Notes: generated from the letters alone by a model not told the origin. A DNA stretch of 64,000 bases from Acidimicrobiia bacterium (GCA_041609995.1 JBFIPU010000002.1:3733-67732); one strand, 5' to 3'. Positions 3,002-29,845 are shown, counted from the stretch's first letter. A program made the numbers and translations.

Positions 3002-4600
3002 ATGGACGAACCATGGTGGAAGACGGGGGTCATCTACCAGATCTACCCGCGCAGCTTTCAGGACACGACCGGCAACGGCATCGGCGATCTCGCCGGCGTC
3101 ACCCGCCGGCTCGACTACGTCCGCGATCTGGACGTCGACGCCATCTGGCTCTCGCCGTTCTATCCGTCGCCCATGGCCGACTTCGGATACGACGTCGCCG
3201 ACTACACCGATGTCGACCCTCTGTTCGGGACGCTGGGAGACTTCGAGGAGCTGGTGTCCCAGGCCCACGGACGCGGGCTGAAGGTGATTGTCGACTACGT
3301 GGGCAATCACACCTCCGACCAACATCCCTGGTTCCAGGAGTCACGACGCGATCGCTCCAACCCGAAAGCCGACTGGTACGTGTGGGCCGATCCGGGGCCC
3401 GGCGGAGCTGTTCCCAACAACTGGCTCTCGATCTTCGGGGGGAGTGCGTGGCAGTGGGATGAGCCTCGGGGCCAGTTCTATCTGCACAGCTTTCTGAAGC
3501 AACAGCCGGATCTGAATTGGCGCAACCCCGGCGTCGAGCAGGCCATGATGGATGTGCTGCGGTTCTGGTTTGATCGGGGCGTGGACGGGGTCCGTATGGA
3601 CGTCATCCACATGATCCTGAAAGACCCAGATCTGCGGGACAATCCGCTCGGGGATCACTTGTCGGTCGAGACCTTCTATCCCGAATATGAAGCCCAGCAG
3701 CACATCCATGACAAGCTGCACCCAGACATCTACGACGTCTTTCGACGCATGCATGCATTGGCAGCTTCGTACGATGGCGACCGGGTCCTGATCGGCGAGG
3801 TTGAGCCGCTTCCATTCGATCAGTTCGTCAAGTTCTATGGCGGCGGCGCCGGCCTGCACCTGCCGTTCTCGTTTCACATGATCTACTCCGCCCGCGATTG
3901 GAAAGCGGTGGACGTCCGATCACTGGTCGACGAGTACGAGCGCTCGGTCGGCCCGTCGGATTGGCCGAACTATGTCCTGGGGAATCACGATGTGGATCGT
4001 CTCGCATCCCGGATTGGTCGCGACCAGGCCCGGATCGGGGCGTTGCTGCTGCTGACACTGCGGGGAACTCCCACCCTCTACTACGGGGACGAGCTGGCGA
4101 TGAGCAACTCCACCATTGCCGATCATCAGGTCCAGGATCCCCGCGCCCACGGGGTTTGGGGGACCGGACGGGACGGTTGCCGCAGTCCTATGCAGTGGGA
4201 TGCCGGGCCTCACGGGGGGTTCACGCACCACACCGCAGAGCCATGGCTGCCGCTGAACGAGGACAGCGCACTCTACAACGTGGCGGTCGAGTCGGAAGAT
4301 CCAGGCTCGATGCTGAACTTCTATCGACGGGTCCTCCGGTTTCGCCGCAGCCACCCCGTCATGCAGCTGGGCGCATACGAACCCCTCGACGTAGGCGAAA
4401 GTGTGTTCGCCTACACGCGCTCGCTCCCAGACGTCGAAGCCGTGATCGCCCTGAATTTCTCGGATGATCCCATCACGATCCGCCATCGTGCCCTGCTGGG
4501 AAAGGCGGCTGTCGTCGGGACGAGCACCCGGCCCAGCCCGGCGGTCGGCGACGCGCTGACGCTCGATGCCAATGAGGGGGTCATCCTCCTGGAGGGCTAG
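3002..4600 (+). CDS. GH13 alpha-glucosidase / oligo-1,6-glucosidase-type (alpha-amylase catalytic domain)
   Basis: MDEPWWKTGVIYQIYPRSFQD..GDLAGV..LDYVRDLDVDAIWLSPFYPSP..DFGYDV.DY..VDP.FGT...F..LV...H..G.KVI.D.V.NHTSDQHPWF: canonical GH13 subfamily signatures. Confidence 0.9.
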   Translation: MDEPWWKTGVIYQIYPRSFQDTTGNGIGDLAGVTRRLDYVRDLDVDAIWLSPFYPSPMADFGYDVADYTDVDPLFGTLGDFEELVSQAHGRGLKVIVDYVGNHTSDQHPWFQESRRDRSNPKADWYVWADPGPGGAVPNNWLSIFGGSAWQWDEPRGQFYLHSFLKQQPDLNWRNPGVEQAMMDVLRFWFDRGVDGVRMDVIHMILKDPDLRDNPLGDHLSVETFYPEYEAQQHIHDKLHPDIYDVFRRMHALAASYDGDRVLIGEVEPLPFDQFVKFYGGGAGLHLPFSFHMIYSARDWKAVDVRSLVDEYERSVGPSDWPNYVLGNHDVDRLASRIGRDQARIGALLLLTLRGTPTLYYGDELAMSNSTIADHQVQDPRAHGVWGTGRDGCRSPMQWDAGPHGGFTHHTAEPWLPLNEDSALYNVAVESEDPGSMLNFYRRVLRFRRSHPVMQLGAYEPLDVGESVFAYTRSLPDVEAVIALNFSDDPITIRHRALLGKAAVVGTSTRPSPAVGDALTLDANEGVILLEG

Positions 4601-5652
4601 ACCTCCTGGAACAGGTATGGACGGAGGACGTCGACGCGTTCTTCGAAGCCGTCCGGGTGCAGATACCACAGCATGGCGGTGACAGACGAGAGCAACGCGT
4701 TGCCATCCTGGGGGGTGAAGCAGAATCCGATGAGCTCGTTGCCGTTACGGACGGCCAAGGTTTCGATCGGGATCACCGTCTGGCTGAGGATGCGGCCGTA
4801 CCATCCATGATCGCGCCCGAAGGAGAAGATCTGGTTGGCCGATTTCTTGTACGTTGTCGCCATGCGGGTGTTGGCGGCGATCCGCTCCATCGCCTCGTCC
4901 ACACTCGTTTCGTGGTCAAGTTCGAGGCTGAACCAGAGGGAGTGCATGTATTGGGTGGGGACCTTCATGGCCGATGACCACAGGTTCAGATCGTGGCCCA
5001 GCGTGGCGAAGAGATCGTGGGCGTCGCGAGCATGGTGAGTGCCGAACCGCTCATCGGCGTGGCCACCCACAGTGGGGGCCGGAATGAAAGAGCCGTCCTG
5101 GCTGATGTCGTTGGCGCGCCGCATGCACAAGAATCTTCCGGAAATGAGGCGGCTCGTCCCGTCCCCGTCCAATGCCAGAGTCTTGATGAGCGAAGAGATG
5201 TTGTGGGTGTTGCACGAAACGATGTGGATGAACTTGTCCTCACCCTTTACCAGAGCTTGATCGTTGATGCCGCGGGCGTACATCTTGCCGAATCCATACT
5301 CAGAGCCCTGGGCCAGGAATCCCAGCGGACCGTCGATCGACTCGTAGAGGGCGTCCTTGTTCTTGTTTCCGACGGGCGTGCAGTCGATGACGACCGAGGA
5401 GCGGGCGACGGCGTCGAACGCGCTCCATTTTGGTGTCACTCCAATGGCCTCAAAGCCGCTCCACCGATCCTCGTCCACTGCCAGGCCGGCTCCGCGCCGG
5501 ATCAGGTCATCGATCTTCGAACGTTCTTCGACGAGCGGGGTGCGTTTGTGAAAGGTGACCTCATCGATGCCAAACGCTTCCCGGTTGTCGACGAGCAGAC
5601 CGATGAGTGGCTCGCCGATGGTCCCAGTCCCGACCACGTGGACGATGTTCAT
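4597..5652 (-). CDS. Type II (archaeal-type) glyceraldehyde-3-phosphate dehydrogenase-like NAD(P)-dependent dehydrogenase
   Basis: MNIVHVVGTGTIGEPL (Rossmann), VVIDCTPVG, IVSCNTHNISSLIKTL, cf. archaeal GAPDH IDCTPEG / VVSCNTTGL active-site Cys region. Start set at MNIV (5652). Confidence 0.5.
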   Translation of the reverse strand: MNIVHVVGTGTIGEPLIGLLVDNREAFGIDEVTFHKRTPLVEERSKIDDLIRRGAGLAVDEDRWSGFEAIGVTPKWSAFDAVARSSVVIDCTPVGNKNKDALYESIDGPLGFLAQGSEYGFGKMYARGINDQALVKGEDKFIHIVSCNTHNISSLIKTLALDGDGTSRLISGRFLCMRRANDISQDGSFIPAPTVGGHADERFGTHHARDAHDLFATLGHDLNLWSSAMKVPTQYMHSLWFSLELDHETSVDEAMERIAANTRMATTYKKSANQIFSFGRDHGWYGRILSQTVIPIETLAVRNGNELIGFCFTPQDGNALLSSVTAMLWYLHPDGFEERVDVLRPYLFQEV

Positions 5653-6751: not shown

Positions 6752-8032
6752 CTAGAACTGTTCCTCTTCGGTGGAGCCGACCAGAGCCAGGGTGGAGGCG
6801 TTGCTCCCAGAGGCGATCACCTGGGCGACCTGATCGAAATAGCCCGCCCCGACTTCCCGCTGGTGGCGGGTTGCCGTATATCCATCCTCTTCCATGGTGA
6901 ACTCGTGCTCCTGCAGCTGGACGTAGGCGGGCATGCCTTCGGCCGCATACCCGCGGGCGAGCTCGAACATCCCGGCGTTGAGGGCATGGAAGCCGGCCAG
7001 CGTGATGAACTGATACTTGTAGCCCATGGCGCCCAACTCCTTCTGAAACACAGCAATCGTGGCGTCATCGAGATGCCGCTTCCAGTTGAAGGAGGGCGAG
7101 CAGTTATAGGCCATCATCTTTCCCGGGTGCTCGGCGCCGAGCCTCTCGGCGAACTCCCGAGCGATGTCGAGGTCGGGTGTGCTGGTCTCGCACCACACGA
7201 GGTCGGCGTACGGAGCGTAGGCCACGCCTCGGGCCACCGCCTGATCCATGCTGTTGTCGACCCGATGGAAGCCCTCGGCAGTCCGCTCTCCGGTCAGGAA
7301 GGGGCGATCGCGCTCATCGATGTCGGAGGTCAGCATGTCGGCTCCGAGAGAGTCGGTGCGGGCGACGATCACCAGATCGACTCCAAGGACGTCGGCCGCC
7401 AGCCGCGCCGCCACCAGGCTCCGGATGTGCTGCTGGGTGGGGATGAGGACTTTCCCACCCATGTGGCCGCATTTCTTCTCGGAGGCCAGCTGGTCCTCGA
7501 GGTGGATGCCGGCTGCGCCGGCTTCGACGTAGGCCTTGACCAGCTCGTATACATTGAGCGCGCCCCCGAACCCGGCCTCGGCGTCCGCCATGATCGGCAG
7601 CATCCAATCGCGTGAGACCTTGCCCTCCGACCATTCGATCTGATCGGCGCGCATCAAGGCGCTGTTGATGCGCTTGACGAGCTCGGGTCCGCTGTTGACG
7701 GGGTAGAGGCTCTGGTCGGGATAGACGTTGCCGCTGAGGTTGGCGTCGCCCGCCACCTGCCAACCGGACAAATAGATCGACTGCAGCCCTGCCTTGGCCA
7801 TCTGGACGGCCTGGCCGCCTGACATCGCGCCGAGAGATCGGACGAAGTCGCCGGAGGTGATCATCTTCCACAGCTTCTCCGCGCCGGTGCGGCTGATGAC
7901 ATGATCCCGGCGGATGGAACCCCGGAGCCTGACAACGTCCTCGGCGCTGTACGGCCGGGTGATACCGTTCCAACGTGGGTTGGTTTCCCAGTCCAGCTGG
8001 AGCGCTTCGATTTCCTGCTGCATGGTTGTCAT
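6752..8032 (-). CDS. aceA: Isocitrate lyase
   Basis: ICL signature [11 protein letters not shown], ..ARTDS..; 426 aa. Confidence 0.95.
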
Positions 8033-8050
8033 GTGTCTCCTTCTCGGGAT

Positions 8051-9640
8051 CTAGGTGCTGACGGCCTGGGGGAGCAGCTCTTGGGCAGGGATCGTGAGGA
8101 ACTCTTCGAAGTTCTCTGATAGGGCCACCTGCAGGAACACCGATGAGGCGCGGGCGACGCCCAGCTGTTCGTAGGCGTCATCACCCATCTCTTCCCGCCA
8201 TCGGGCGAGCTCCTCCGCTGTCAGCTCATGGACCAGTTCGGTCGTGACGGCCCGGCCGTCGTCGAGGCTGGCCCCGTGGCGGACCCACTGCCAGATCTGG
8301 GAGCGGCTGATTTCGGCGGTCGCCGCGTCCTCCATGAGGTTGAAGATGGCGGCGGCTCCGGTCCCGTTTATCCAGGAGGTGATGTAGCGAATACCGACCG
8401 AGATGTTCTTGCGAAGGCCCGCCTCGGTGATCGTTCCGGTGGGCACGGCGAGCAAGTCTGCCTGTGTGATCCAGCCGACCGGTCCCGGATTGGCGATCTG
8501 GTTCGGTGCGCCGCCGAGGACCCGGGCGAAAGCATCCATGGCGACGTCGATCAGGTCCGGGTGGGCAACCCAGGTGCCATCGTGACCCTTGTGGGCCTCC
8601 TTGTCCTTGTCAGCCTTGACCTTGGCCAGCGCCCGATCCGTGATGGTGGGGTTGGACCGATCCGGGATGAATGCCGCCATGCCCCCCATGGCGTGTGCTC
8701 CCCGGCGGTGGCAGGTGTGAACGAGGAGATCGGTGTACGCCTCCATGAACGGCACCGACATCGTCACCTGGTCCCGATCCGGCATCACGAACGCCGGATC
8801 ACTCCGGAGCTTCTTGATGACCGAAAAGATGTAGTCCCAGCGGCCGGCGTTGAGGCCGGCGGAGTGATTCCTCAGCTCGTAGAGGATCTCGTTCATCTCG
8901 AAAGCAGCCGGCAGTGTCTCGATGAGGACGGTTGCCTTGATTGTGCCCTGCGCGATGTCGAGGTGATCCTGGCTGAAGACAAACACGTCATTCCAGAGGC
9001 GAGCTTCGAGGTGTGACTCGAGCTTGGGAAGGTAGTAATACGGTCCGGTGCCGCGAGAGATCAGTTCTCGCCCATTGTGAAAGAGATACATCCCGAAATC
9101 GAACAGCGACGCACTCAGAGGCTCGCCGTCGATCGTGACGCTTCGCTCTTCTAGGTGCCATCCCCGCGGTCGGACCATCAGCACTGCCAGCTGCTCTCCG
9201 AGCTGGTAGATCTTGCCGTTCTGCTCGAGCTCGATCGATCGTCGCACGGCGTCCTTCAGGTTGATCTGGCCGCCGATCGTGTTGGCGTAGGTGGGAGAGT
9301 TGGAATCCTCGAAATCGGCCATGAACGCCTTGGCCCCACTGTTGAGAGCATTGATGATCATCTTGCGATCGACCGGGCCGGTGATCTCGACCGTGCGGTT
9401 CTCGAGGTCCGGCGGAATCGGGGCGATGGTCCAGTCGCTCGTCCGGATCGACTCGGTGGAAGGAAGGAAATCGGGTTTCACGCCCCGATCAAACGCCTCC
9501 TGGCGACCGCGGCGGGTATCGAGCAGCGCAAGGCGCCGGTGATCGAACCGTCGGTGGAGCTCCGCCACGAACGCAAGGGCGTCTTCTGTGAGGATTTCGG
9601 AGGCTCGTGGGTGGTCCGACGGGGTGTGATGGATGTTCAT
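8051..9640 (-). CDS. aceB: Malate synthase A
   Basis: 529 aa; malate synthase A-type sequence (..[63 protein letters not shown]..). Directly upstream of aceA on the same strand. Confidence 0.95.
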
Positions 9641-9915
9641 ACGCTCATAATTATTGATAGATTTTCGACCGCCGACAGATTCGCCCGGTAAGAATGAGTG
9701 ATATTATCAATAGGGCAAGATCTGCACAGTCGCGAGCGGGCGAGCAAACGAGCATCGGGCGCGACTCGCCAATGGCGGGCCCGACCGTGACGAGGCAGGT
9801 CAGAAACCACCGGAAGAAGCCGATCGAAAGCAAAAGACGACCGATCCCGGACATGAGATCACGGGGTTCGGGTGGCAGCCACCCGAACCATCGGACCCGG
9901 ATAGGAGACACAGCA

Positions 9916-10016
9916 CACGTGAACACGGACACATGAACACGGACACATGAACACGGACACATGAACACGGACACATGAACACCGACACATGAACACCGAC
10001 ACATGAACACCGGGAC
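9916..10016. repeat. Seven tandem copies of a 14-bp unit (GAACACGGACACAT; last copies GAACACCGACACAT / GAACACCGGGACAT) in the aceB-ramB divergent promoter; the final copy contains the ramB-like ATG
   Basis: Read directly: ..acacgtGAACACGGACACAT x4, GAACACCGACACAT x2, GAACACCGGGACATtt.. Generates spurious repeat-derived ORFs on both strands (9651..10127, 9800..10018). Confidence 0.9.
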
Positions 10017-11448
10017 ATTTGGCCGAAGAGTTCGCCACTTCCGGAAGGAAGCGGGACTCACCCTCGAGGAATTGGGGGCGCTGGTCGGCAGGCCCGCACC
10101 GTACCTGTCCAACATCGAGACCGGCAAGCGGGAGCCGAAGCTGGGCGTAGTTCAGGACCTGGCAAATGCGCTGGGGATCAGCTCACAAGCGCTGCTGGAG
10201 GAGACCGCGCCCACCGAACGCGACCGCCTCGAGCTCGAGCTGGAGACGGCCCAACGCCATCCGTTGTATGCCGAGCTCGGCTTGCCACACCTCAAGCCCA
10301 CGGCCAGGATGCCCGACCTCGCCCTCCACCATCTGGTGGAGCTGTTTCGGGGGATGGTTTCGTCACGCGAGCTCGCCCCGGACGCGATGCGGGTGGCGAC
10401 GACCCAGCTTCGTTCCGAGATGGCGCGCCGCGACAACTACGTCGGCGAGATCGAGGACGTTGCCAGCGCCACGCTGGCCAAGTCCTCTTACCAGGGAACC
10501 GGGCCGGTGGCGCAAGCGCAGCTGTTGGAGATCCTCGATGCGTTCGGCTTCTCGATTGCCCGGGTGTCCGACCTTCCGCGGACGACGCGCTCGGTCGCCG
10601 ATCTCGCCAACCGAACCATCTACCTTCCCCAACGGGACGCTCTTCGGACCCGTGACGCCCGGTCTGTCCTGCTGCAGACCCTCGCCCATTTCGCGCTGGA
10701 GCACGTCGACCCCGAAGACCTCGAAACGTTTCTTCGTCAGCGTATCGAGGCCAACTACTTCGCCGGAGCGGTGCTGGCGCCGGAAGAGGCCGCCGTGGCG
10801 TTTCTGCGGGCCGAGCAAGAGGATCGGAACCTGTCGGTGGGCGATCTGAAAGAGGTCTTTTACGTGTCGTATCAGATGGCGGCCCACCGATTCACCAACC
10901 TCGCCACCCGCCACCTCGATATCCCGGTTCACCTCGTGCGGAGCGACGAGGCCGGGATCATCTGGCAGGTCTATGAGAACAACGGCGTACCGCTGCCCCG
11001 GGCGGCCGATGGCAGCGTCGAGGGCCAGCGGCTGTGCAAGGAGTGGGGAACGCGAGCTGTCTTCAAGTCACCCGACAAATACTCGCTTCACTACCAGTAC
11101 ACCGACACCACCAACGGCACCTACTGGTGCGCGTCGCACATCATCGTCGACAGTGAGCCGTTGCATGCGGTCACGGTCGGCACCGACTTCGAGCATGTTC
11201 GGTTCTTCCGCGGAAGGGAAACCGAGCGCCATACGGCCAGCGGGTGCCCGGACGGGCCGTGCTGCCGGACGCCTTCGCCGGGCCTGGCGGAGCGCTGGGC
11301 GGGGCACGTGTGGCCGTCCGTGATCGGACGCTCTCATCCTGGAGCACCGGTTCCTGGTGTCTTCGCCGGTGTCGACATGGTCGAGATCTACGAATTCCTT
11401 GAAACACATGCACAAGACGAGAATCAGATATCGGATCGGGTAGAGTGA
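10003..11448 (+). CDS. ramB: RamB/ScfR-like transcriptional regulator (XRE-family HTH + ImmA/IrrE-type DUF955 domain)
   Basis: N-term HTH GRRVRHFRKEAGLTLEELGALVGRPAPYLSNIETGKREPKLGVVQDLANALGIS. Long C-terminal short-chain-fatty-acyl-CoA-regulator-type domain. Divergent from aceB/aceA, the arrangement known for ramB-icl in Corynebacteriales. Confidence 0.8.
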   Translation: MNTGTFGRRVRHFRKEAGLTLEELGALVGRPAPYLSNIETGKREPKLGVVQDLANALGISSQALLEETAPTERDRLELELETAQRHPLYAELGLPHLKPTARMPDLALHHLVELFRGMVSSRELAPDAMRVATTQLRSEMARRDNYVGEIEDVASATLAKSSYQGTGPVAQAQLLEILDAFGFSIARVSDLPRTTRSVADLANRTIYLPQRDALRTRDARSVLLQTLAHFALEHVDPEDLETFLRQRIEANYFAGAVLAPEEAAVAFLRAEQEDRNLSVGDLKEVFYVSYQMAAHRFTNLATRHLDIPVHLVRSDEAGIIWQVYENNGVPLPRAADGSVEGQRLCKEWGTRAVFKSPDKYSLHYQYTDTTNGTYWCASHIIVDSEPLHAVTVGTDFEHVRFFRGRETERHTASGCPDGPCCRTPSPGLAERWAGHVWPSVIGRSHPGAPVPGVFAGVDMVEIYEFLETHAQDENQISDRVE

Positions 11449-13448: not shown

Positions 13449-14600
13449 CTACGAATCGTCGGACTGATCGACCAGCAGCCCGGCGGTGATCAGCTGAGCG
13501 ATCAACTCATCGACGTCGGAACCGGCAGTACCGACGTCGATGTTGTAGGAGCTGACGACAGCGGCCACGGTTTCTGACCGCTCCCGCCCGTTCGCCACCT
13601 GGTCCCAGATGAAGGCAGAGGTTCCTGTCAGGCGAACAACCTGTCCGCCGGCCGTGTCGGCCACCACGACAGATTCCTCGTCCTGGGCGTACAGCGTGGA
13701 CGGAGCCAGCCGCATCCAGCCGCTCCATTCGCTGATGGTGCGGATCGGCGTATCGGTCGCCTGGTTCTTGAGACACAGCTCGGGCGGCACCAACCGCCAT
13801 CCGCTCTCGCTCGTATCGAGAGCTCGATTCCAGAATCGGATATCTGGCTCGTTCCACGGAAACACGACGTGGTCCGGTTGGCCGTCCCAGTAGCGGTCGT
13901 CGTGCTCGGTCCACCGCTGCTCCCAATCACCGTGGTCGTCCCCCAGCCGCTCCGGAGCGTGATCCACGAGGTCGACGCCACTCACCACCGAAACCACCCT
14001 GGGCTCGGCTGCAGTAATGGCGGACCGCAGCTGCGGGGTCGAGAACAGCGGCGCGAACACGATTTCACTCGCCTCGAGCCTCGCCAGATGACGCCGGAAC
14101 TGATCTCCCGAGTAGGCGACGTCGTCGAACACGACCAGCGGCCGGGCCTCCGCCTCCGGCTCCGGATCCCCTTGCCCGAGCAGGTACGACATGACCCCGA
14201 GCACGAACCAGCCGCCGCGGGGGATGGCACTCAGCGGCCAGTGCGTGATCCCAGCCCCCAACTCCTCACGCAATCGCCCGGCCAGCGAGCGGCAGGCAGC
14301 CTCGACGCCCGGATAGTCCACATAGCGGGTATGAGGCGCCACGTGGGCCAGCATCCAGTGCAGGGCTGTCAAGCGTTGGAGATCGGCTTCGTCGAAGCGG
14401 CCGGCGATGCCCGCGAGGCCGGTGGCGGGCCTCACCACGAGCTGCGGCTGGTTCATCTGCCGGAGAAGCGGGCTCGACTGGATTCCACGACACGCAGCCA
14501 CTGTTGGGGGCGCGCCGATCCTCTCGCTCATCGGTGAGAAGAACGCGAGGGCAGGGGAGAGGTCTAGAGGTTCGAGGTGTAGCGTTTGGGCTGAGGCCAC
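13449..14600 (-). CDS. Fusion protein: N-terminal type-I phosphoribosyltransferase-like domain + C-terminal PqqD-like RiPP recognition element (RRE); putative leader-guided lasso-peptide tailoring enzyme
   Basis: Central PRPP-loop-like motif RPLVVFDDVAYSGDQFRRHLARL. C-terminal ~85 aa (ESVVVADTAGGQVVRLTGTSAFIWDQVANGRERSETVAAVVSSYNIDVGTAGSDVDELIAQLITAGLLV) has the PqqD/RRE pattern. Begins 9 nt after the precursor stop. Track start is GTG at 14600; internal Mets at residues 24 and 48 are alternatives. Confidence 0.6.
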   Translation of the reverse strand: MASAQTLHLEPLDLSPALAFFSPMSERIGAPPTVAACRGIQSSPLLRQMNQPQLVVRPATGLAGIAGRFDEADLQRLTALHWMLAHVAPHTRYVDYPGVEAACRSLAGRLREELGAGITHWPLSAIPRGGWFVLGVMSYLLGQGDPEPEAEARPLVVFDDVAYSGDQFRRHLARLEASEIVFAPLFSTPQLRSAITAAEPRVVSVVSGVDLVDHAPERLGDDHGDWEQRWTEHDDRYWDGQPDHVVFPWNEPDIRFWNRALDTSESGWRLVPPELCLKNQATDTPIRTISEWSGWMRLAPSTLYAQDEESVVVADTAGGQVVRLTGTSAFIWDQVANGRERSETVAAVVSSYNIDVGTAGSDVDELIAQLITAGLLVDQSDDS

Positions 14601-14609
14601 CCGGGCAAA

Positions 14610-14747
14610 CTAGTTGCCCATTCCTTGCCCCATACCGCTGCCGAAGTTGGCGTCAAAGCCCGGGTTACTTGGCCCGTTCTGTGTGAGCTCGGCAATCGAG
14701 CCCAGCCGCTCCACCTTCGGTTTGGTGTATTCCAGCTTCTTGTCCAT
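14610..14747 (-). CDS. Lasso peptide precursor (45 aa), absent from the ORF track
   Basis: Hand translation of the minus strand: MDKKLEYTKPKVERLGSIAELTQ-NGPSNPGFDANFGSGMGQGMGN*. Leader matches the lasso consensus Y-x2-P-x-L/V-x3-G-x5-T-x with Thr at -2. Core has an Asp at position 9 (8 if Gly is residue 1) for the macrolactam. RBS AAGGGG 7 nt upstream of the ATG. Sits between the cyclase and the RRE-fusion gene on the same strand. Confidence 0.8.
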   Translation of the reverse strand: MDKKLEYTKPKVERLGSIAELTQNGPSNPGFDANFGSGMGQGMGN

Positions 14748-14837
14748 GTCTTACCCCTTGAAGAGCACTCTGTGTGTCAGGATCGACACTGTAAGTGTTC
14801 AGATTAGCGAGAACTTCGCGACCTGCAACCCCTTGCG

Positions 14838-16610
14838 CTACCAGTGATTGCGCAACCACAACTCGAGCGTCACCAGGGCCCAGAAATTGCTATCGAGGGG
14901 TCGGCCCTGACGGAATGCGGCGACGTGTTCGCGCACGCCTTGCGGTTGCGCGTATCCGGCCCGTACCGAGGACATGTCCGTCGTCAGATCGTCGAGCCTG
15001 CGGTTGGGATCGTGGCGAAGATGCTGGTCGAAGAAGGCCACCGGGATCACCTTCGCCAGGGGTTCCACCACCGCCGGAGGGGCCATGGTCTGCAGAGCGA
15101 GCCGGGTCAGGCGTTTGGGACAGCTCGGAGTCTGGACCAGGTGCTGGGGGATGCTGACCACGAGACGGGCGATCCGCAGGTCGCTCCACGGGTCGACCAT
15201 CCGTACGCCCCGGGCCGCATGCATGCGTTGGGACCAGGATGCCACCCGCATCTGAAATGGCGACAGAATCGTCCGCTGCCGTCGACCCGCAGGGCCTCCC
15301 AGGTCTGCGGGCGCGGAGAATCTGGTGAGGAACTGGCCCATGTTCGTCGCCTCTGCGAAGTCGGGGTTCACCCATGATTGCCAGGGCCTCTTGCGGTGCT
15401 TGGCCAGTTCCAGCCGGACGGGTTGGGGAAGCTTGTCCACGAGGAGGGGCCGTACTGCCTCCTTCCAGGCCGACGCCAAGGCCGAGCGACGACCGAATGA
15501 AGCCAGTTCAGACCATGTGCGGCGGATACCCAGATCGGTCAGCATGCCCGACCAGGCGTAGACCTCGGATCCCGTCATCAGATCACCCCGGTTGCCCAAC
15601 ATCATCGCCTCGACGCCTCCATCGGCCGCCCGGCCGACCGTCGCGTGCAGCAGCGGCTCGTAGTGGCCATAGAGCGGATCGTTCAAATCCGGACCCGCTG
15701 GGAATTCGGCCAGCGGCGGCGACGAGTCGGCGTCGATCTCGGTGACGGGGATCTCGAGCGCAGCCGCCAGAGGGTCGCTGAGGTGGCGCTCGTCCACCGT
15801 GGGAGTGGTCGGGAAGGCGAAACTGAATGCTCGCACCGACGTGTCATTCCGGACCTGGGCGGCGGCTGCTGCCAGCGACCCGCTGTCGAGTCCACCGCTC
15901 AGCATGATGCCCGCCGATCGCGGCGGCAGTCGTACTCGCACAGCCTCCTGGAGGAGGTGCGCCAACTCGGCTGTTGCATCGTCGGGGACCGCCCCCGGTT
16001 CGAGGTCCCAGAACCCGGCGCTCGCCACCCCCCGGGGCGAGACCGTCACTACGTGGCCGGGGGGGACCTGCTCGATCCCTTCGAAGAACGTCCACGTTGG
16101 GTCGAAAACGCCGCCCGCCAGATGTCCGGCCACTGCGCGCTCGTTGATCCTCTTGTCCACCAGCCCCGATGCCAGGAGATGGCTCGGCTCGGACGCAAAC
16201 GCCACCAGGCCATCCGAGTGCCAGAAGACCAGCGGACGCAGCGACATCGGGTCGCGGCCCAGGAGGATTGCCCTGGCATCGAAGTCGATGACCGCGAAGG
16301 CGTAGTCGCCCAGGCAACCAGAAGCAGCAGACGTTCCCAGCTTCTCATAGCCGGACAGAATCATCGCAGCAGGGGGTTCGTCGGCGTGGTCGAAGCGAGC
16401 ATCCGCCACAACTAGACGCCGCCCGTCTGCCGACCAGCCAAGGCCAGCAGACTCCCACTGGAGTGGCAGCGAATAGACCCGAGCCGATTCGTTGCCATCT
16501 GTGACCGGATCGCCATCGCGATCACCGGCCGCCGCCCGAGCCATGGCGGACACGGTTCCCGGATCAACGGGTCGACCGTTCAGGTCCACGATGCCGCCGA
16601 TTCCGGGCAT
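14838..16610 (-). CDS. Lasso peptide cyclase (asparagine synthetase B-like, C protein)
   Basis: N-term vestigial glutaminase-like MPGIGGIV..RPLVFWHSDGLVAFASE; PP-loop ATP-binding motif SGGLDSGS; 590 aa. Confidence 0.9.
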   Translation of the reverse strand: MPGIGGIVDLNGRPVDPGTVSAMARAAAGDRDGDPVTDGNESARVYSLPLQWESAGLGWSADGRRLVVADARFDHADEPPAAMILSGYEKLGTSAASGCLGDYAFAVIDFDARAILLGRDPMSLRPLVFWHSDGLVAFASEPSHLLASGLVDKRINERAVAGHLAGGVFDPTWTFFEGIEQVPPGHVVTVSPRGVASAGFWDLEPGAVPDDATAELAHLLQEAVRVRLPPRSAGIMLSGGLDSGSLAAAAAQVRNDTSVRAFSFAFPTTPTVDERHLSDPLAAALEIPVTEIDADSSPPLAEFPAGPDLNDPLYGHYEPLLHATVGRAADGGVEAMMLGNRGDLMTGSEVYAWSGMLTDLGIRRTWSELASFGRRSALASAWKEAVRPLLVDKLPQPVRLELAKHRKRPWQSWVNPDFAEATNMGQFLTRFSAPADLGGPAGRRQRTILSPFQMRVASWSQRMHAARGVRMVDPWSDLRIARLVVSIPQHLVQTPSCPKRLTRLALQTMAPPAVVEPLAKVIPVAFFDQHLRHDPNRRLDDLTTDMSSVRAGYAQPQGVREHVAAFRQGRPLDSNFWALVTLELWLRNHW

Positions 16611-16624
16611 GGTCTCAGACTAGG

Positions 16625-17599
16625 TTGCGCTCGGAAACCTGCTGGGCGGGAGCTATGAACGATTATCGGATCTACGGCCGCAATCTCCGGTCTTCATTCC
16701 GTTTCGAAAACCGGCTGCTCCCGGCTGCCGGCGAGCCCGAGCTCTATTTTGGGGCGGTGGCAGGACCGGCCTTTGACGCCTCGGTCCACAAACTGGTCTA
16801 TCAAACCGAACCGCCCATCTACGACGGGAAGGCCGAGTTGTACCTCTTCAAGGGAGACGACGAGTTCGTCTTTGAATTCACGGGCGCCAGCCGCTTCCAT
16901 GTGAAGAGTCAGGAGATCCTCTTCGAGGTCACCCATCCCGAGTATTCGTTTCTGACCGAGATCTATTTCCTGGGAATCATCATGAGCGCCTGGCTGGAAC
17001 TCCAGGGTGTCATCGCTCTCCACTCGGCGGCGGTGGCGGTCGGTGACAGGGCGGCGGGGTTCGTCGGGCTCAACCAGGCGGGCAAGAGCACGCTGGCGGC
17101 GTCCCTCATGAACAGAGGTCATGGCCTGATGACCGATGACGTGTTGGCCGTCGAGAAAGTCGAAGGCCGGTTCGTGGCCCACCCCGGCTATCCCCAGATG
17201 CGCATGTGGCCGGAAATGGCGATGGCATTCGGCCTCGATCCCGGGTCGCTGCCCAGGGTGCATCCAGAATTCGACAAAGTGCGCGTGCCGGTCGGGGAGG
17301 GAGGATTCGGGCGCATGCGCCGCGAGGCAGCAGAGCTCTCTCGCATCTATGTCGTGAACCGCGATGACCGTGCAGACGCGCCGGCGGTTCAACCGATGAC
17401 TTCGTCCGAGGCGATGTCCGAGTTGTTGCGCACCTCCTTCGCCGGTCTCGTGCTGGGGGGGATCGAGGTCAGCCACACGAGGTTGCCGGTCGTAGCACAA
17501 TTGGTGGGAGAGGTTCCGGTGCGTCGCCTGACGTATCCGGCCAACCGGTTCGAAGCGGCGTTGGAGATGATCGAGGAGGATGTGCGTGGCAGGCTATAG
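16625..17599 (+). CDS. HPr kinase/phosphorylase C-terminal-domain-like kinase (lasso-peptide kinase family)
   Basis: P-loop region LHSAAVAVGDRAAGFVGLNQAGKSTLAASLMNRGHGLMTDDV typical of HprK-like kinases reported in phosphorylated lasso peptide clusters. Start may be the Met at 16655. Confidence 0.7.
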   Translation: MRSETCWAGAMNDYRIYGRNLRSSFRFENRLLPAAGEPELYFGAVAGPAFDASVHKLVYQTEPPIYDGKAELYLFKGDDEFVFEFTGASRFHVKSQEILFEVTHPEYSFLTEIYFLGIIMSAWLELQGVIALHSAAVAVGDRAAGFVGLNQAGKSTLAASLMNRGHGLMTDDVLAVEKVEGRFVAHPGYPQMRMWPEMAMAFGLDPGSLPRVHPEFDKVRVPVGEGGFGRMRREAAELSRIYVVNRDDRADAPAVQPMTSSEAMSELLRTSFAGLVLGGIEVSHTRLPVVAQLVGEVPVRRLTYPANRFEAALEMIEEDVRGRL

Positions 17600-18524
17600 C
17601 CTCGTTCAGTACGGCGAGATGTTGGCTGATCGAGTTCGAACCTCTGCCTACGTCCGGGCCATGGAGGAGACCATCAAGGCGGGTGACGTCGTGCTGGATC
17701 TGGGGGCCGGCCCCGGCTTCTTTGCGATCAAAGCGGCTTTGATGGACGCCAGGAAGGTCTATGCCATCGAGCCCAATCCCAGCATCGCGCTCGGGCGAGA
17801 GCTGGCCCACACAGCCGGGGTCACCGAGCGGGTCGAGTTCATCCACGCGCTCTCGACCGAAGTCGAATTGCCAGAGAAGGCGGATGTGATCGTGGCCGAT
17901 TTGCGCGGTGCGCTGCCGCTGTACGACGGCTCCATCACGACGATTGCCGACGCCCGCGATCGACTCCTGGCGCCGGGCGGTACATTCATCCCGCTGCGAG
18001 ATGACCTCTACTGCGCCCCCACCTCCGGGGCCCTGAGCCGGGGCTACTCGATATGGACCTCCGAGGAAACCGGGCTCGATCTCACTCCGGGAGCCAAATA
18101 CGCCCTGAACACGTGGGATGCGAGACGCGTTGATCCGTCAATGCTCGCCGCCGGCCCGAGGAAATGGGCGAGCATCGATTATCTCTCGGTCGACAGTGCC
18201 GGGATCAGCGGTCGCGCCGTTTGGAAAGCCGACCATCCTTTCGAAGCGGATGGTTTGTGCCTCTGGTTCGAAACCGAGCTGATCCCGGGCATCGGATACT
18301 CGAGCGGACCGTTGGGGGAGGCCACCACGTATCGCATGGCGTTCTTTCCTCTTAGCGAGACCCTCCGCGTCGATGCCGGTGGACAACTGGAGGTGGAGAT
18401 CGAATCGAGCCCAATTGGCGACTCCCCAGCCTGGACCTGGCAGGCGCGGACGGTCGACGCTGCTGGAGCAATACACGAGCCGGCCAAGCAGTCGAGCCTG
18501 CTGTCCATGCCCATTCCCCGCTGA
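17580..18524 (+). CDS. PRMT-like (protein arginine N-methyltransferase fold) class I SAM-dependent methyltransferase
   Basis: RTSAYVRAMEETIKAGDVVLDLGAGPGFFAIKAALMDARKVYAIEPN..VEFIHALSTEVELPEKADVIVADLRG..RDRLLAPGGTFIP aligns motif-by-motif with the PRMT1 core ([53 protein letters not shown]), plus a C-terminal beta-barrel-like domain. Confidence 0.65.
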   Translation: MCVAGYSLVQYGEMLADRVRTSAYVRAMEETIKAGDVVLDLGAGPGFFAIKAALMDARKVYAIEPNPSIALGRELAHTAGVTERVEFIHALSTEVELPEKADVIVADLRGALPLYDGSITTIADARDRLLAPGGTFIPLRDDLYCAPTSGALSRGYSIWTSEETGLDLTPGAKYALNTWDARRVDPSMLAAGPRKWASIDYLSVDSAGISGRAVWKADHPFEADGLCLWFETELIPGIGYSSGPLGEATTYRMAFFPLSETLRVDAGGQLEVEIESSPIGDSPAWTWQARTVDAAGAIHEPAKQSSLLSMPIPR

Positions 18525-18800
18525 TCAAACGACCCGGATCAGGCCCTTCTGGTGAAGATCCGACAGCAGTTCGTGCAGGTCTTGGCGGAGCGTCTCGTCA
18601 TCGACGTCGAACTGACCCGCCAGCTGCTCACGCGCTGCCGCAATGGAATCAGCGCCGCCGACCGCCTTCCACATCGCGAGCGCAACCGGGTCGAGCGAGT
18701 AATACACCTCGGTTCCGAGATGCAAGATGACAGCCTCGCCATCGGCCAGCTCCTGGACCAGTGCGTCGGGTGCCAGCTCAACCCGTCTCGTCTCATCCAT
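18525..18800 (-). CDS. Lasso peptide biosynthesis B1 protein (PqqD-family RRE)
   Basis: 91 aa, MDETRRVELAPDALVQELADGEAVILHLGTEVYYSLDPVALAMWKAVGGADSIAAAREQLAGQFDVDDETLRQDLHELLSDLHQKGLIRVV: classic PqqD-like pattern. Confidence 0.85.
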   Translation of the reverse strand: MDETRRVELAPDALVQELADGEAVILHLGTEVYYSLDPVALAMWKAVGGADSIAAAREQLAGQFDVDDETLRQDLHELLSDLHQKGLIRVV

Positions 18801-18809
18801 GGCAACCTC

Positions 18810-19268
18810 TCAGTCGAACCGTTTGCCTTCTACCGGACCGGCAAAGGGAGCGTACAGCGTTGCGACGTCGTCATCGTCATTCACAACGGAGCCGTCGACC
18901 TCCACCCAGGCGTGAAAAAGGATCGCACCCTCCTCCTTCTTGACCCCGAAGCGCACGTCGGCGGGAATACCATGTTTTCGCAGGAGCGCCAGTGCCGCTG
19001 TCGACCGGGCGAGACAGTTCGGGCGGCCGATCGAGTATTTGGCAGCCAGAGAAACCAGAGATGCGATATGACGAGCTTCCTCGATTGTCGCCGACCTGGG
19101 TGCGGGTCGCCGGGCCAGCAAATCGTGCATTCGCTGAAATCCCGCCAGGCGGAAGCCGATACGGGTTATATGGAGCAGCCACCAGGCGCGAAACAACAGA
19201 CGACGGTCTCTGCCGGTGAGATCTCTGACGAGGATTCGAATCCGATTGGCCCAGACGGAGCGCAGCAT
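18810..19268 (-). CDS. Lasso peptide biosynthesis B2 protein (transglutaminase-like leader peptidase)
   Basis: Catalytic Cys/His/Asp region RPNCLARSTAALALLRKHGIPADVRFGV..GAILFHAWVEVDGSVVNDDD. Start chosen at Met-29 (19268); the track ORF extends to 19352. Confidence 0.85.
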   Translation of the reverse strand: MLRSVWANRIRILVRDLTGRDRRLLFRAWWLLHITRIGFRLAGFQRMHDLLARRPAPRSATIEEARHIASLVSLAAKYSIGRPNCLARSTAALALLRKHGIPADVRFGVKKEEGAILFHAWVEVDGSVVNDDDDVATLYAPFAGPVEGKRFD

Positions 19269-19324
19269 GCTCCAAAGCGTATCGGCTATGGCCGGCACGG
19301 GTCCGCCGCCATCGCACGGTTTCG

Positions 19325-20455
19325 GTGGGCGACAATGACATGGTGACCGCAATGCCGCGCCACGTGCCCCCCTTCTGGCCGGACGAGACGGAACTCGGCC
19401 TGTTGCGGGCTGCCCTCCTCCCAGATCAGCGGGCGATCCACGCCTGGCGGCAATTGGACCTGAGCTCGGTCGGTGCGCGTCACGAAACCTGGAGCCTGCT
19501 TCCCCTGGCGTTTTTCAATCTCAAGGATCTGGGGGTCCCCATCAACGACATGGCCGAGGCGGCCGCCGCCTACAACCGGACACTCGATACCAATCGCGTG
19601 CTTGCTCAGGCGGCCTCGGAGACGATGGCGTCTTTTCTTCGCGAGGGCATCGATCACGTCGCCCTCAAGGGCCTGGCGTTGTTGACGACGGTGTATCCGG
19701 ATCTGGGAACGCGTCCGATGTTCGATGCCGATGTGATGGTGCGAAGTCTCGACGTGAAACGGGCTGCCCGGGTGTTGGGCCGGGCCGGATACCATCCCGC
19801 CACCCCACTCGAGGATGCCCTTCTGGCCACCAGAGCGAGTGCTCAGTTCGTTAATGCGGACGGGATCGACATCGACCTCCATTGGCACGCCCTCGGCGGA
19901 TACGTGGCCGAGCCATTCGACGATGCGCTGTGGCAGGGGCGGGTCACCACCACCTCGCCGCTGGGGATGGAGATGAAGGTGCTGAGCCGGGCCGAGCAGC
20001 TCACCCAGGTGATCGGGCATGCACTCCGCGCCGGGTGGCCAGGCACGCGATGGTGGGCCGATATCGCCCTGCTTCTCAGATCGTCCTGGACCGATGACCA
20101 GTGGTCACGTCTCGGCGAGTTGGCTTCTCTGTTCCAGATGACGCTTCCCATGTCGGGAATCCTGACGTACCTGCGTGACCATGTCGGCATCGATGTTCAG
20201 CGTGAGGCCTTCGAAGTCCTAGAACGCAACCGCCCGTCTCGATCAGAGAGGATTCAACGCCGGGCGCTCAGCAGGCTCGATCCGGGTTCTACGACAGCGG
20301 CCTTGCTGCGGTCATGGGCCACGTATGCCGCCGTGCAAGCCGCCGGGGAACGCCGCCGGGGGCCGGTTGGCTTCACGCGCTTCACATGGAGGTACCTCGG
20401 ATCGGGCTCTGATGCCGGCAATGCACTCGAAGCCATACGTCGCAAACTCAGCTGA
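19325..20455 (+). CDS. Nucleotidyltransferase-family protein (NTP_transf_5/pfam14907-like)
   Basis: ..VALKGLALLTTVYPDLGTRPMFDADVMVRSLDVKRAARVLGRAGYHP.. matches the 'uncharacterised nucleotidyltransferase' family commonly found in kinase-containing lasso clusters. Divergent from B2; the true start may be a few codons downstream. Confidence 0.6.
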   Translation: MGDNDMVTAMPRHVPPFWPDETELGLLRAALLPDQRAIHAWRQLDLSSVGARHETWSLLPLAFFNLKDLGVPINDMAEAAAAYNRTLDTNRVLAQAASETMASFLREGIDHVALKGLALLTTVYPDLGTRPMFDADVMVRSLDVKRAARVLGRAGYHPATPLEDALLATRASAQFVNADGIDIDLHWHALGGYVAEPFDDALWQGRVTTTSPLGMEMKVLSRAEQLTQVIGHALRAGWPGTRWWADIALLLRSSWTDDQWSRLGELASLFQMTLPMSGILTYLRDHVGIDVQREAFEVLERNRPSRSERIQRRALSRLDPGSTTAALLRSWATYAAVQAAGERRRGPVGFTRFTWRYLGSGSDAGNALEAIRRKLS

Positions 20456-20486: not shown

Positions 20487-21617
20487 TCAGAAGAACGAAG
20501 AGTTTTTGTATTCGGTGAGCTGTTCGAGGTTTTCCTGGATGAAGCGGCTCTCGAATTCGGTCCGCACCTCGTCCTGGATCTCCTTGAGCGGCGCCTGGCA
20601 CTCGTGGTCGGCCACGGCCGTGCGGATCTCTTCTTCGCTCAACGCCCGGATCTCGGCAGTGGTGGCCTCGTCGAACTGGGGGCCCTGATTGAACTGATTG
20701 AAGAAGTCCTCCTGCTCCTCAGGGGTGGTGGTTTCGAAGAACTCCTGGATCTCTTCTTCCGACCAGCCCGCAAACGGGTCGACGTAGGCCTCCTCCATCT
20801 TCCTCCAGAAGACTTCGGCCGCTTGATAGAAATACTCCGGCGGCTCCCGGGGGCTGTCGTAGGAGAACCCCTTGTCCGCCATGCACGATGACCAGGCGTT
20901 CTCGGCCTCGACCATGCGGGGATCGGCGCTGATCTGCTGCTCCAGACGGTCGAAAGCCTCGAAAATCTCCTCGTAGTCGAACTCGTCGTTCTCTTCGAAG
21001 TTCCCATAGATCTCGGTGTGAGCTCGGTTGTAACAACCGTTATCGGGATCGAACTCGTTGACCTGTTCGTCCACGTACTCACCCGTCTCCGGGTCGAGCG
21101 CCGGCTCCTCCCAGACTCCATAGAGGTCTTCGTAGTACTGCTCACGCTCGATCTCGGTGAGAGAGTCGACGTACTCCTGATTGGGATCCACGAACTCTTG
21201 CGCCGGCTGTTCGACGTCAGACCACGGATCATCGAGGATGAATGTGGTGGCCCCGTAGCCGAAACGAGCAGCCCGTTCCTGTTCCGTCAGGTCTCCGAAG
21301 GGATCGAAGAACTCGGCCTCGCCGTAGTCGACCGGCCGGTATTCCCAACCGAATTCGGCCATGCAACCCGCAACGACCTCTTCGACCTGGCGCTGCCGGT
21401 CCCGCTCGGCTGCGGGATCGTATCCGTCTCCCCACCCGAAGAACTCCTCGAGCGTGGCAGCCGGGCTCCCGGGATCTTCGCCGTTCTCCGGCGCGGTCGA
21501 AGCGGCTGTGACGTCCGCCTCCGGCTCTCCGTCGTCCGGCGAGGTCGATCCTCCTCCGCAAGCCGCCATGGCCAGCGCTGCCAGCAGCAGGATTGCCGGC
21601 ACCAGCCAACGCGTCAT
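20487..21617 (-). CDS. Highly acidic, aromatic-rich secreted lipoprotein of unknown function
   Basis: Lipobox LLAALAMAACGGGS. Very Asp/Glu/Phe/Tyr/Trp-rich with repeated E-x-F/E-E-F motifs; no recognisable catalytic domain. Confidence 0.6.
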   Translation of the reverse strand: MTRWLVPAILLLAALAMAACGGGSTSPDDGEPEADVTAASTAPENGEDPGSPAATLEEFFGWGDGYDPAAERDRQRQVEEVVAGCMAEFGWEYRPVDYGEAEFFDPFGDLTEQERAARFGYGATTFILDDPWSDVEQPAQEFVDPNQEYVDSLTEIEREQYYEDLYGVWEEPALDPETGEYVDEQVNEFDPDNGCYNRAHTEIYGNFEENDEFDYEEIFEAFDRLEQQISADPRMVEAENAWSSCMADKGFSYDSPREPPEYFYQAAEVFWRKMEEAYVDPFAGWSEEEIQEFFETTTPEEQEDFFNQFNQGPQFDEATTAEIRALSEEEIRTAVADHECQAPLKEIQDEVRTEFESRFIQENLEQLTEYKNSSFF

Positions 21618-21700
21618 GGAATGGAACCGGTCGTCCATCGTCCTCTCCTATGGAAGGTCAGTCAGGATACGCCGGGATACCACCTGGTGCGGGGCTGTGC

Positions 21701-24305: not shown

Positions 24306-24361
24306 CCCGGTTAACGTCTTTCGGGTGATGAGTGGTCGATACGCTTCTGCCTGGTGACGCC

Positions 24362-29841
<5,480 letters not shown>

Positions 29842-29845
<4 letters not shown>

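Follow-up and report, generated by a model that had tools for sequence, protein, structure and literature searches.

The 64,000-nucleotide stretch of DNA analysed here (hereafter, the window; Acidimicrobiia bacterium, GCA_041609995.1 JBFIPU010000002.1:3733-67732) carries, at positions 13449-20455, a class II, split-B lasso-peptide cluster of an uncultured high-GC actinobacterium. Its eight genes include an HprK-like kinase and a protein that joins a phosphoribosyltransferase (PRTase)-like part to a recognition element (RRE) of the kind found in the pathways of peptides made by ribosomes and modified after translation (RiPPs). We are highly confident that this is a functional-looking lasso cluster made up of the enzyme families named below, and the best explanation overall, which we hold with moderate confidence, is that the fusion protein and the kinase modify Ser14 in the tail of the lasso peptide. 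For this cluster and its relatives, the closest of which are in Acidimicrobiia metagenome-assembled genomes (MAGs), we document below what the genes are, which folds and conserved motifs their products have, and how far synteny and precursor sequence are conserved. All eight open reading frames (ORFs) are intact based on ORF listing and translation, and those described in an earlier note on this DNA were reproduced, with starts that are either those given there or lie a few codons away.

A PRTase-like domain fused to a lasso-type RRE

The fusion protein (13449..14600, minus strand; 383 aa) consists of a type I PRTase core (residues ~95-205), a conserved region that we call the hood (~205-300) and a C-terminal RRE (residues 300-383). 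The latter matches PF05402 (E=1.7e-11), is of the lasso-B1 type, and is closest to lasso B1 proteins. Within the core, we found the motifs IPRGG (residues 125-130) and LVVFDDVAYSGDQF (residues 155-168). The LVVFDDVAYSG loop was aligned by hhalign to VVLVDDVLFTG, the loop of a canonical PRTase that binds 5-phosphoribosyl-1-pyrophosphate (PRPP), and its DD-x3-SG segment lies on a strand-loop-helix in the structure model. The protein has the core fold of PRTases together with a PRPP loop of the usual make-up (a hydrophobic strand, two acidic residues and S/T-G), and both halves of the fusion named in the earlier note were borne out. We take IPRGG to be the pyrophosphate loop, judging from HGPRT-type motifs.

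Conservation across the family follows the same residues. In an alignment of 31 diverse members, IPRGG and VV(V/F)DDxxxSGxRF are invariant (D159, D160 and G165 in the LVVFDDVAYSG loop), and a second conserved block, W..GQPDH..FPWNEPD...W followed by GWR..PP..CLKN, covers the hood, where about 15 more residues are invariant, including W238, E251, C276, K278 and N279. This pattern suggests a working PRPP site combined with a family-specific "hood" for the acceptor, and we put at even or slightly below the chance that this protein catalyses a PRPP-dependent modification of peptides. PF00156, the Pfam family of type I PRTases such as OPRT, APRT, HGPRT and UPRT, is matched by 7 of the 31 members (best E=9e-7); the similarity of the window protein to these enzymes lies under Pfam thresholds, and the hood and N-terminal subdomains are unique.

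A database search returned 49 full-length relatives, every one of metagenomic or MAG origin, for which "PqqD family protein" is the best annotation available. The fusion forms a family of its own: an exhaustive HMMER search with the N-terminal 300 residues, clustered at 50%, yielded 430 representatives, of which 397 have E<=1e-10. Nearly all are MAG-derived, and no canonical PRTase is among them. Almost all of these representatives are 370-420 aa long and, therefore, the PRTase-like part is nearly always fused to an RRE. The arrangement differs from those known for lasso RREs: TbiB1 and TfuB1 (PDB 5v1u, 6jx3) are B1 proteins, whereas the window RRE makes up the C-terminal part of an enzyme-like protein of 383 aa, and fused lasso B proteins carry their RRE on the N-terminal side of the protease. 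Since the PRTase-like part is joined to a peptide-recognition domain, the implied acceptor is a peptide; to our knowledge, no peptide acceptor is known for the type I PRTase superfamily.

A conserved precursor-fusion-kinase unit

Genomic context was assessed in 85 related loci by profile searches of six-frame ORFs. A lasso cyclase gene is found in 57 of the 80 non-duplicate fusion loci, and in most loci a lasso-type precursor lies directly upstream of the fusion. Kinases were counted with a hidden Markov model (HMM) built on alignment A2, as an HMM seeded with the window kinase badly under-detected them; a 333-aa protein in locus L001 was recognised as a kinase by Pfam alone. In the 56 usable loci (those with at least 1.2 kb on both sides of the fusion), the HprK-like kinase adjoins the fusion in 37 and is located elsewhere in the locus in 13 (50/56 in all). 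The other genes are less constant: among the 25 loci where both flanks reach at least 7 kb, B1 was found in 16, B2 in 16, the NTP_transf_5 nucleotidyltransferase in 10 and the methyltransferase of protein arginine methyltransferase (PRMT) fold in one. Because of these co-occurrence counts, we consider the precursor (A), fusion and kinase genes next to the cyclase gene (C) as the conserved unit, and B1/B2, nucleotidyltransferase and methyltransferase as variable additions. Hence, while the four tailoring genes listed in the earlier note are all present, two of them, the fusion and the kinase, which mostly lie side by side, form the conserved centre of a large family and are more than optional extras.

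The family is distributed in Acidimicrobiia and other Actinomycetota, Gemmatimonadota, Acidobacteriota, Salinibacteraceae/Rhodothermales (Bacteroidota/Rhodothermota), Opitutia (Verrucomicrobiota), Spirochaetes (Spirochaetota), Chloroflexota, Cyanobacteria and a few Proteobacteria. Three Acidimicrobiia/Actinomycetes MAGs (L004, L006 and L007) have the eight genes in exactly the layout of the window, at 48-59% protein identity, and selection acts on this arrangement. The gene combination, presented in the earlier note as undescribed, is indeed one on which we found no publication, but it is not a one-off, given these three MAGs and the occurrence of its modules across many phyla.

The most serious alternative is that the fusion is no transferase and serves instead as a chaperone that binds the leader: a B1 paralogue that hands the precursor to the adjacent kinase and, in some clusters, also to B2 and C. 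In that case, its PRTase-fold domain would be a scaffold or a PRPP/nucleotide-sensing module, as in PyrR, PurR and the ppGpp-binding PRTase-like proteins. This is plausible because regulatory PRTase folds exist and because the fusion is the only RRE in some clusters: those of Salinibacter ruber (L091), L052 and L058 have B2 without a separate B1 and, therefore, the fusion RRE must be the sole RRE there. The closeness of the fusion RRE to lasso B1 proteins also fits a chaperone, as do the descriptions of NCBIfam TIGR04352/TIGR04353, according to which HprK-like RiPP kinases pair with PqqD-type chaperones, and a review that proposes that B1 may aid phosphorylation (PMC9266682). However, the window already encodes a stand-alone B1 (~27% identical to the fusion RRE over 44 residues), and the PRPP-site residues and the roughly 15 hood residues are invariant across phyla, a pattern that looks more like an active site than a scaffold. 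We thus regard a purely chaperoning fusion as unlikely, although it deserves to be kept in view.

The precursor family and its conserved tail Gly-Ser

The precursor gene (14610..14747, minus strand; 45 aa) is the sole precursor-like ORF in the 64-kb window. It has homologues in related loci, exceeds the cutoff of NF033521 lasso_leader_L3 (21.7 vs. 19 bits), is preceded by a ribosome-binding site (RBS; AAGGGG), and is annotated as a gene in public assemblies. Its leader, MDKKLEYTKPKVERLGSIAELTQ, contains a YxxP motif (Y7-T-K-P10) and ends in ...AELT(-2)Q(-1), while the predicted core, NGPSNPGFDANFGSGMGQGMGN (NGPSNPGFD-ANFGS-GMGQGMGN), contains Asp9, a tail Gly13-Ser14 and a C-terminal Asn. The peptide accordingly shows the features of a lasso precursor, namely a YxxP leader, a penultimate Thr and an Asp/Glu at core position 7-9 (here, D9). 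The ring is predicted to close between Asn1 and Asp9, giving a 9-residue ring, a 13-residue tail and an unmodified [M+H]+ of 2094.84.

Homologous precursors in about 60 related loci share the leader pattern YxxPxLxxWGTVxDLTx and have cores of two classes, the major one reading x-G-x-T-x-P-G-x-D-x-K-x-G-S-V... (family pattern, xGxTxPGxD...GS). Of 60 cores, 48 have a Gly-Ser in the tail and 55 have [GA][ST]. When the cores were shuffled with their composition preserved (2000 trials), Gly-Ser turned up in only 21.4 +/- 3.3 of them, with a maximum of 32. The motif is retained even in cores in which a much longer loop separates it from Asp9 (L038, L060, L066, L070 and L072). Further, the bulkiest residues in several family tails are Lys, Gln, Met, Ile, Leu or Val (e.g., AKTGSASSQGG and AKSGSVASQGG). 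A 9-residue lasso ring normally requires large plug residues, and such plug-poor, Gly/Ser-rich tails look odd for a ring of this predicted size.

The kinase and described phosphorylated lasso peptides

The kinase (16655..17599, plus strand; 314 aa) gave sub-threshold HMM matches alone (PF07475 E=5.9e-5, TIGR04352 E=3.2e-8), and it was the fold that settled its HprK/PEPCK assignment, in agreement with the earlier call. It carries the Walker A motif NQAGKST and H133/K154/D171/D172 (numbering from 16625); a His-Lys-Asp-Asp motif has been reported as essential in lasso kinases (PMC9266682). A sequence search of the PDB with the kinase, and likewise with the nucleotidyltransferase, gave no useful match. 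In the literature, kinase-containing lasso clusters have been described from Firmicutes and Proteobacteria, the groups that the earlier note named as the main source of clusters with a kinase plus a nucleotidyltransferase. The systems of paeninodin (Paenibacillus dendritiformis) and of ThcoK/SyanK have in common with the window a split B1/B2, a C protein and an HprK-like kinase with His-Lys-Asp-Asp. Their kinases act on the linear, leader-bearing precursor and need a C-terminal Ser. In contrast, the window core ends in Asn and its conserved Ser is internal (Gly13-Ser14), the window kinase is partnered with the PRTase-like::RRE fusion, which these systems lack, and the window cluster has no ABC exporter. 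Pseudomycoidin (Bacillus pseudomycoides), which is phospho-glycosylated by PsmK and PsmN, similarly shares with the window a kinase and a DxD-containing "uncharacterised nucleotidyltransferase", and differs by its C-terminal Ser, by the absence of a PRMT-fold methyltransferase and a PRTase-RRE fusion, and by its phylum and precursor family.

Since the window core ends in Asn and not in Ser, the window kinase cannot work as in paeninodin or pseudomycoidin, and the earlier suggestion of such a type has to be abandoned as far as the kinase action is concerned. A weaker alternative along the same line is that of a transplanted paeninodin/pseudomycoidin-type cluster, in which the kinase (poly)phosphorylates the C-terminal residue, the nucleotidyltransferase glycosylates the phosphate, and the methyltransferase and fusion are of minor importance. 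The precedents (PMC9266682, PMC8498205, PMC6993621), the H-K-D-D motif and HprK fold of the kinase, and the presence of an NTP_transf_5 enzyme with DxD are all consistent with it. Nonetheless, the defining C-terminal Ser is present in just 3 of 60 family cores, and the end of the window core (...GMGN) compares with ...GGGN and ...EPGN in relatives, with the C-terminal Asn being conserved in the window clade, including L004 and L007. Moreover, the hydroxyl that is conserved belongs to the internal Gly-Ser, and the linkage of the kinase to the fusion is far tighter than to the nucleotidyltransferase. We find this alternative quite improbable.

Proposed pathway and its weak points

Our favored explanation remains that the fusion and the kinase modify the internal tail Ser14. 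By analogy with the known lasso pathway, the precursor leader (YxxP...Thr(-2)) would be bound by an RRE and cut by B2 after Gln23, and the alpha-amine of Asn1 would be joined to the side chain of Asp9 by the ATP-dependent C. The fusion would dock on the leader through its own B1-like RRE, bringing in a type I PRTase domain that looks competent for PRPP, and, together with the HprK-like kinase, would act on the Gly13-Ser14 conserved in the tail while the precursor is still linear. There, the kinase would phosphorylate Ser14, and the PRTase domain would take 5-phosphoribosyl from PRPP and attach it to that phosphate, to the hydroxyl or to some other conserved nucleophile. Like PsmN in pseudomycoidin, the NTP_transf_5 enzyme would next extend a phosphate, and the PRMT-fold enzyme would methylate a non-arginine acceptor. 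Because many tails of the family are Gly/Ser-rich and without plug residues, the resulting bulky, anionic adduct may act as a steric lock. In this scheme, we infer which step follows which, what atom accepts the group, that PRPP is the donor and that the adduct serves as a plug. That Ser14 carries a phosphoribosyl-type adduct acting as a lock is, in our view, a tentative proposal, and the broader version, in which the fusion is the first leader-guided, PRPP-dependent peptide phosphoribosyltransferase and, together with the kinase, builds a phospho(ribosyl) lock at the tail Ser of plug-less tails, is equally speculative.

Several points weigh against this explanation. Every chemical step of the pathway is one that we infer. 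Type I PRTases form bonds mostly to N nucleophiles, and a transfer to Ser-O or phosphate would be new. The window fusion reaches no PRTase Pfam gathering threshold, its only match being to PRTase-CE, where it scores 17.2 bits and 27 would be needed. The kinase is absent from 6 of the 56 usable fusion loci and the Gly-Ser motif from 12 of 60 cores, and the window core is without the Lys and the Thr kept in most family cores. Its residue 1 is Asn, which is unusual for lasso peptides (Thr or Val in relatives), and cleavage one residue later, possible from the sequence as the invariant core Gly2 leaves room for it, would result in a Gly-Asp, 8-residue ring instead. Finally, no exporter or immunity gene adjoins the cluster, and a promoter scan found no sigma-70-like sites in the divergent promoter regions (~40-70 bp), a scan that is uninformative because the host is a high-GC actinobacterium. 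These last two gaps, and the very short intergenic regions, would also be expected if the accessory genes were unrelated neighbors or the cluster a decayed, silent remnant, a view that we consider hardly credible given that the eight ORFs are intact, gene order and orientation are kept in relatives at about 50% identity, the catalytic motifs of C, B2, kinase, nucleotidyltransferase and fusion are intact, and the same organism and cluster are found unchanged across >10 sequencing runs.

Core lasso enzymes, further tailoring genes and gene arrangement

The assignments of C, B1, B2 and precursor in the earlier note were supported by HMMs. The cyclase C (14838..16610, minus strand; 590 aa) is Asn-synthetase-like (PF00733 E=4.6e-26, GATase_7 E=1.4e-8, NF033535 E=4.9e-46) and has the PP-loop SGGLDS (MLSGGLDSG). 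Its N-terminus is MPGIGG and, therefore, the glutaminase Cys nucleophile is absent. With 157 bits where 525 are required, C does not reach the NCBIfam "exception" models for lasso cyclases, which are lineage-specific. B1 (18525..18800, minus strand; 91 aa) is a stand-alone, PqqD-type RRE (PF05402 E=1.5e-16; lasso_PqqD_Bac and lasso_PqqD_Strm about 1e-8). B2 (18810..19298, minus strand; 152 or 162 aa) is the leader peptidase, a transglutaminase-like Cys protease (NF033537 lasso_biosyn_B2, 91.5 bits vs. a cutoff of 33; PF13471 E=6.2e-23) whose Cys, His and Asp can be read in PNCL, FHAW and NDDDD.

The methyltransferase (17580..18524, plus strand; 312-314 aa) is an S-adenosylmethionine-dependent enzyme (PrmA E=3.8e-9) that, as called earlier, has the PRMT fold: PRMT6 aligned over residues 10-283 (E=2.9e-23), covering both the Rossmann domain and the barrel. 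The Glu pair of PRMT6, however, aligned to D107 and D115, and in the bacterial family D107 (SDLRG) is invariant and the second position variable (alignment A3). In addition, the cores of methyltransferase-containing clusters are mostly without Arg, which is absent from the window core and from those of L004, L007, L024 and L082. Because the double-E loop is not conserved and the core is without Arg, the enzyme is probably not an arginine methyltransferase despite its fold. The bacterial PRMT-fold family (778 matches) consists mostly of proteins of about 380 aa with a conserved ~70-aa C-terminal helical domain (...LRKR..VP.L...G..D...L..M......IA..L...FP.RF...), which is not present in the window protein and its closest relative. 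We also considered whether this extension could be an RRE, but hhalign showed no similarity to B1.

The nucleotidyltransferase-fold enzyme (19340..20455, plus strand; 371 aa) was confirmed as NTP_transf_5 (PF14907 E=2.2e-32, 113 bits vs. a cutoff of 31.2) with the DxD in FDADV, and is of the same broad "uncharacterised nucleotidyltransferase" type as PsmN, based on comparison of description and motif. In PsmN, the importance of the DxD was shown by D134A/D136A mutants, and enzymes of this type attach groups to phospho-Ser (PMC6993621).

A related combination of genes is found in an isolate, Caenimonas aquaedulcis (L089; GCA_015831345.1, 4139-11177), in the order B1-B2-C-A-HprK-like kinase-PRMT-like methyltransferase-JmjC/cupin_8-NTP_transf_5. 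The methyltransferase of this proteobacterial type is 43% identical to that of the window and has the extra ~70-aa C-terminal domain, whereas the PRTase-RRE fusion is absent and the core (SLNTGNADGMGGAAMQSTHL in L089) is without the xGxTxPGxD...GS pattern. We found no published characterisation of this cluster type, and it appears to be another uncharacterised, multi-tailored lasso type.

Inspection of gene starts placed that of the kinase at ATG 16655, with a GGGAG RBS before it (the ORF itself opens at TTG 16625), that of the nucleotidyltransferase at ATG 19340, and that of the methyltransferase, whose reading frame overlaps the kinase stop, at 17580 or 17586. B2 starts at either ATG 19268 (152 aa) or GTG 19298 (162 aa), with both gene calls being carried by public contigs. 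Because the kinase, nucleotidyltransferase and B2 starts were thus corrected, the divergent intergenic gaps are 44 bp (C/kinase) and 41-71 bp (B2/nucleotidyltransferase), as opposed to the 0-15 bp noted earlier, and are still very short.

The flanks of the cluster are of housekeeping character (DUF520, glyoxylate-shunt genes, a cupin and a giant acyl-CoA carboxylase). Next to the nucleotidyltransferase gene, in the window and in every public contig of this organism, is a gene (20487-21638, minus strand) for a very Asp/Glu-rich, 383-aa protein with a lipoprotein-like signal (…LAALAMAACGG) and no Pfam match. Further downstream (24332-29845, plus strand), a single 1837-aa chain joins biotin carboxylase, biotin carboxyl carrier protein, ACC_central region and carboxyltransferase in the manner of a eukaryote-like, single-chain acyl-CoA carboxylase. 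At 6752-11448, isocitrate lyase and malate synthase genes adjoin an HTH_XRE plus peptidase_M78 (ImmA/IrrE-like) regulator, which resembles a RamB-type glyoxylate-shunt regulon and has no relation to the lasso cluster.

Variation among related loci

The related loci also revealed a few departures from the window arrangement. In the cultured halophile Salinibacter ruber (L091; CP030357.1, 304734-321696), the genes run C-kinase-ABC-B2-C-A-fusion-kinase and a third kinase is present as well; the locus encodes two distinct precursors (VGNTDPGTDMKDGSVNPPGH... and ALGTDSQSDQSDKPNQFPPDGGSSDVCNNDDPDSVC) and no stand-alone B1. Two tandem Asn-synthetase-like cyclase genes beside a single precursor and fusion were observed in L016-L018, L020, L027, L035, L036 (5414-7363 and 7378-9312), L049 and L053, compared to one cyclase in the window; a second isopeptide bond or a heteromeric cyclase are among the possible reasons. 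In a Nitriliruptoraceae MAG (L072), two systems adjoin each other (~3900-5600 and 9600-11134), one with a Ser-ending precursor (GSSDGDFTDASFPEGTPRGDLTFS) and its own kinase and B1, the other with a fusion-type precursor (VGQTQPGDDTLPGDAKGKDGGSVNPGGLG).

Other loci, cyanobacterial and some others, have no cyclase, B1 or B2 within the available flanks; these are L032, L037, L043 and L045, which carry fusion and kinase, and L046 (Altericista sp. CCNU0014 chromosome, ~10001-11026), which carries the fusion. The fusion-kinase pair may work outside lasso pathways too, or the partner genes may be located elsewhere. In Acidobacteriota (L002/L003/L028, 7708-9738), the cyclase beside the fusion is split in two ORFs (347 and 269 aa) in two independent assemblies, with no kinase, B1 or B2 nearby, which may represent a decaying cluster or a naturally split cyclase.

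Implications

The modifications of lasso peptides covered by reviews from 2021/2022 and a June 2026 JACS perspective are C-terminal methylation, phosphorylation, phospho-glycosylation, citrullination, acetylation, acylation, hydroxylation, epimerisation, aspartimide formation, cross-links, Trp chlorination and prenylation, and Ser glycosylation; neither ribosylation nor a PRTase is mentioned in them. Our literature search found no paper on a PRTase in a lasso or RiPP pathway, the one apparent match being concerned with hisZ phylogeny, and no relevant paper on arginine methyltransferases and lasso peptides.

In conclusion, the window holds a lasso biosynthetic gene cluster whose tailoring family is undescribed and large, numbering several hundred clusters in which the fusion is wired to the precursor via its RRE and coupled to a kinase. 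Lasso peptides are valued as scaffolds, both in peptide engineering and for antibiotics, and new tailoring chemistry broadens the range of products that can be reached. If the fusion is active on peptides, it would provide a modification absent from lasso reviews to mid-2026 and extend the PRTase superfamily to peptide acceptors. Further, if the phosphoribosyl lock exists as proposed above, it would be new in three respects, namely as a RiPP modification, as an acceptor class for type I PRTases and as a way of locking a lasso. The internal Gly-Ser and the bulk-poor tails lead to the testable idea that a post-translational group, as opposed to a side chain, may serve as the plug of a lasso, and Salinibacter ruber, as a cultured carrier, makes such experiments practical.

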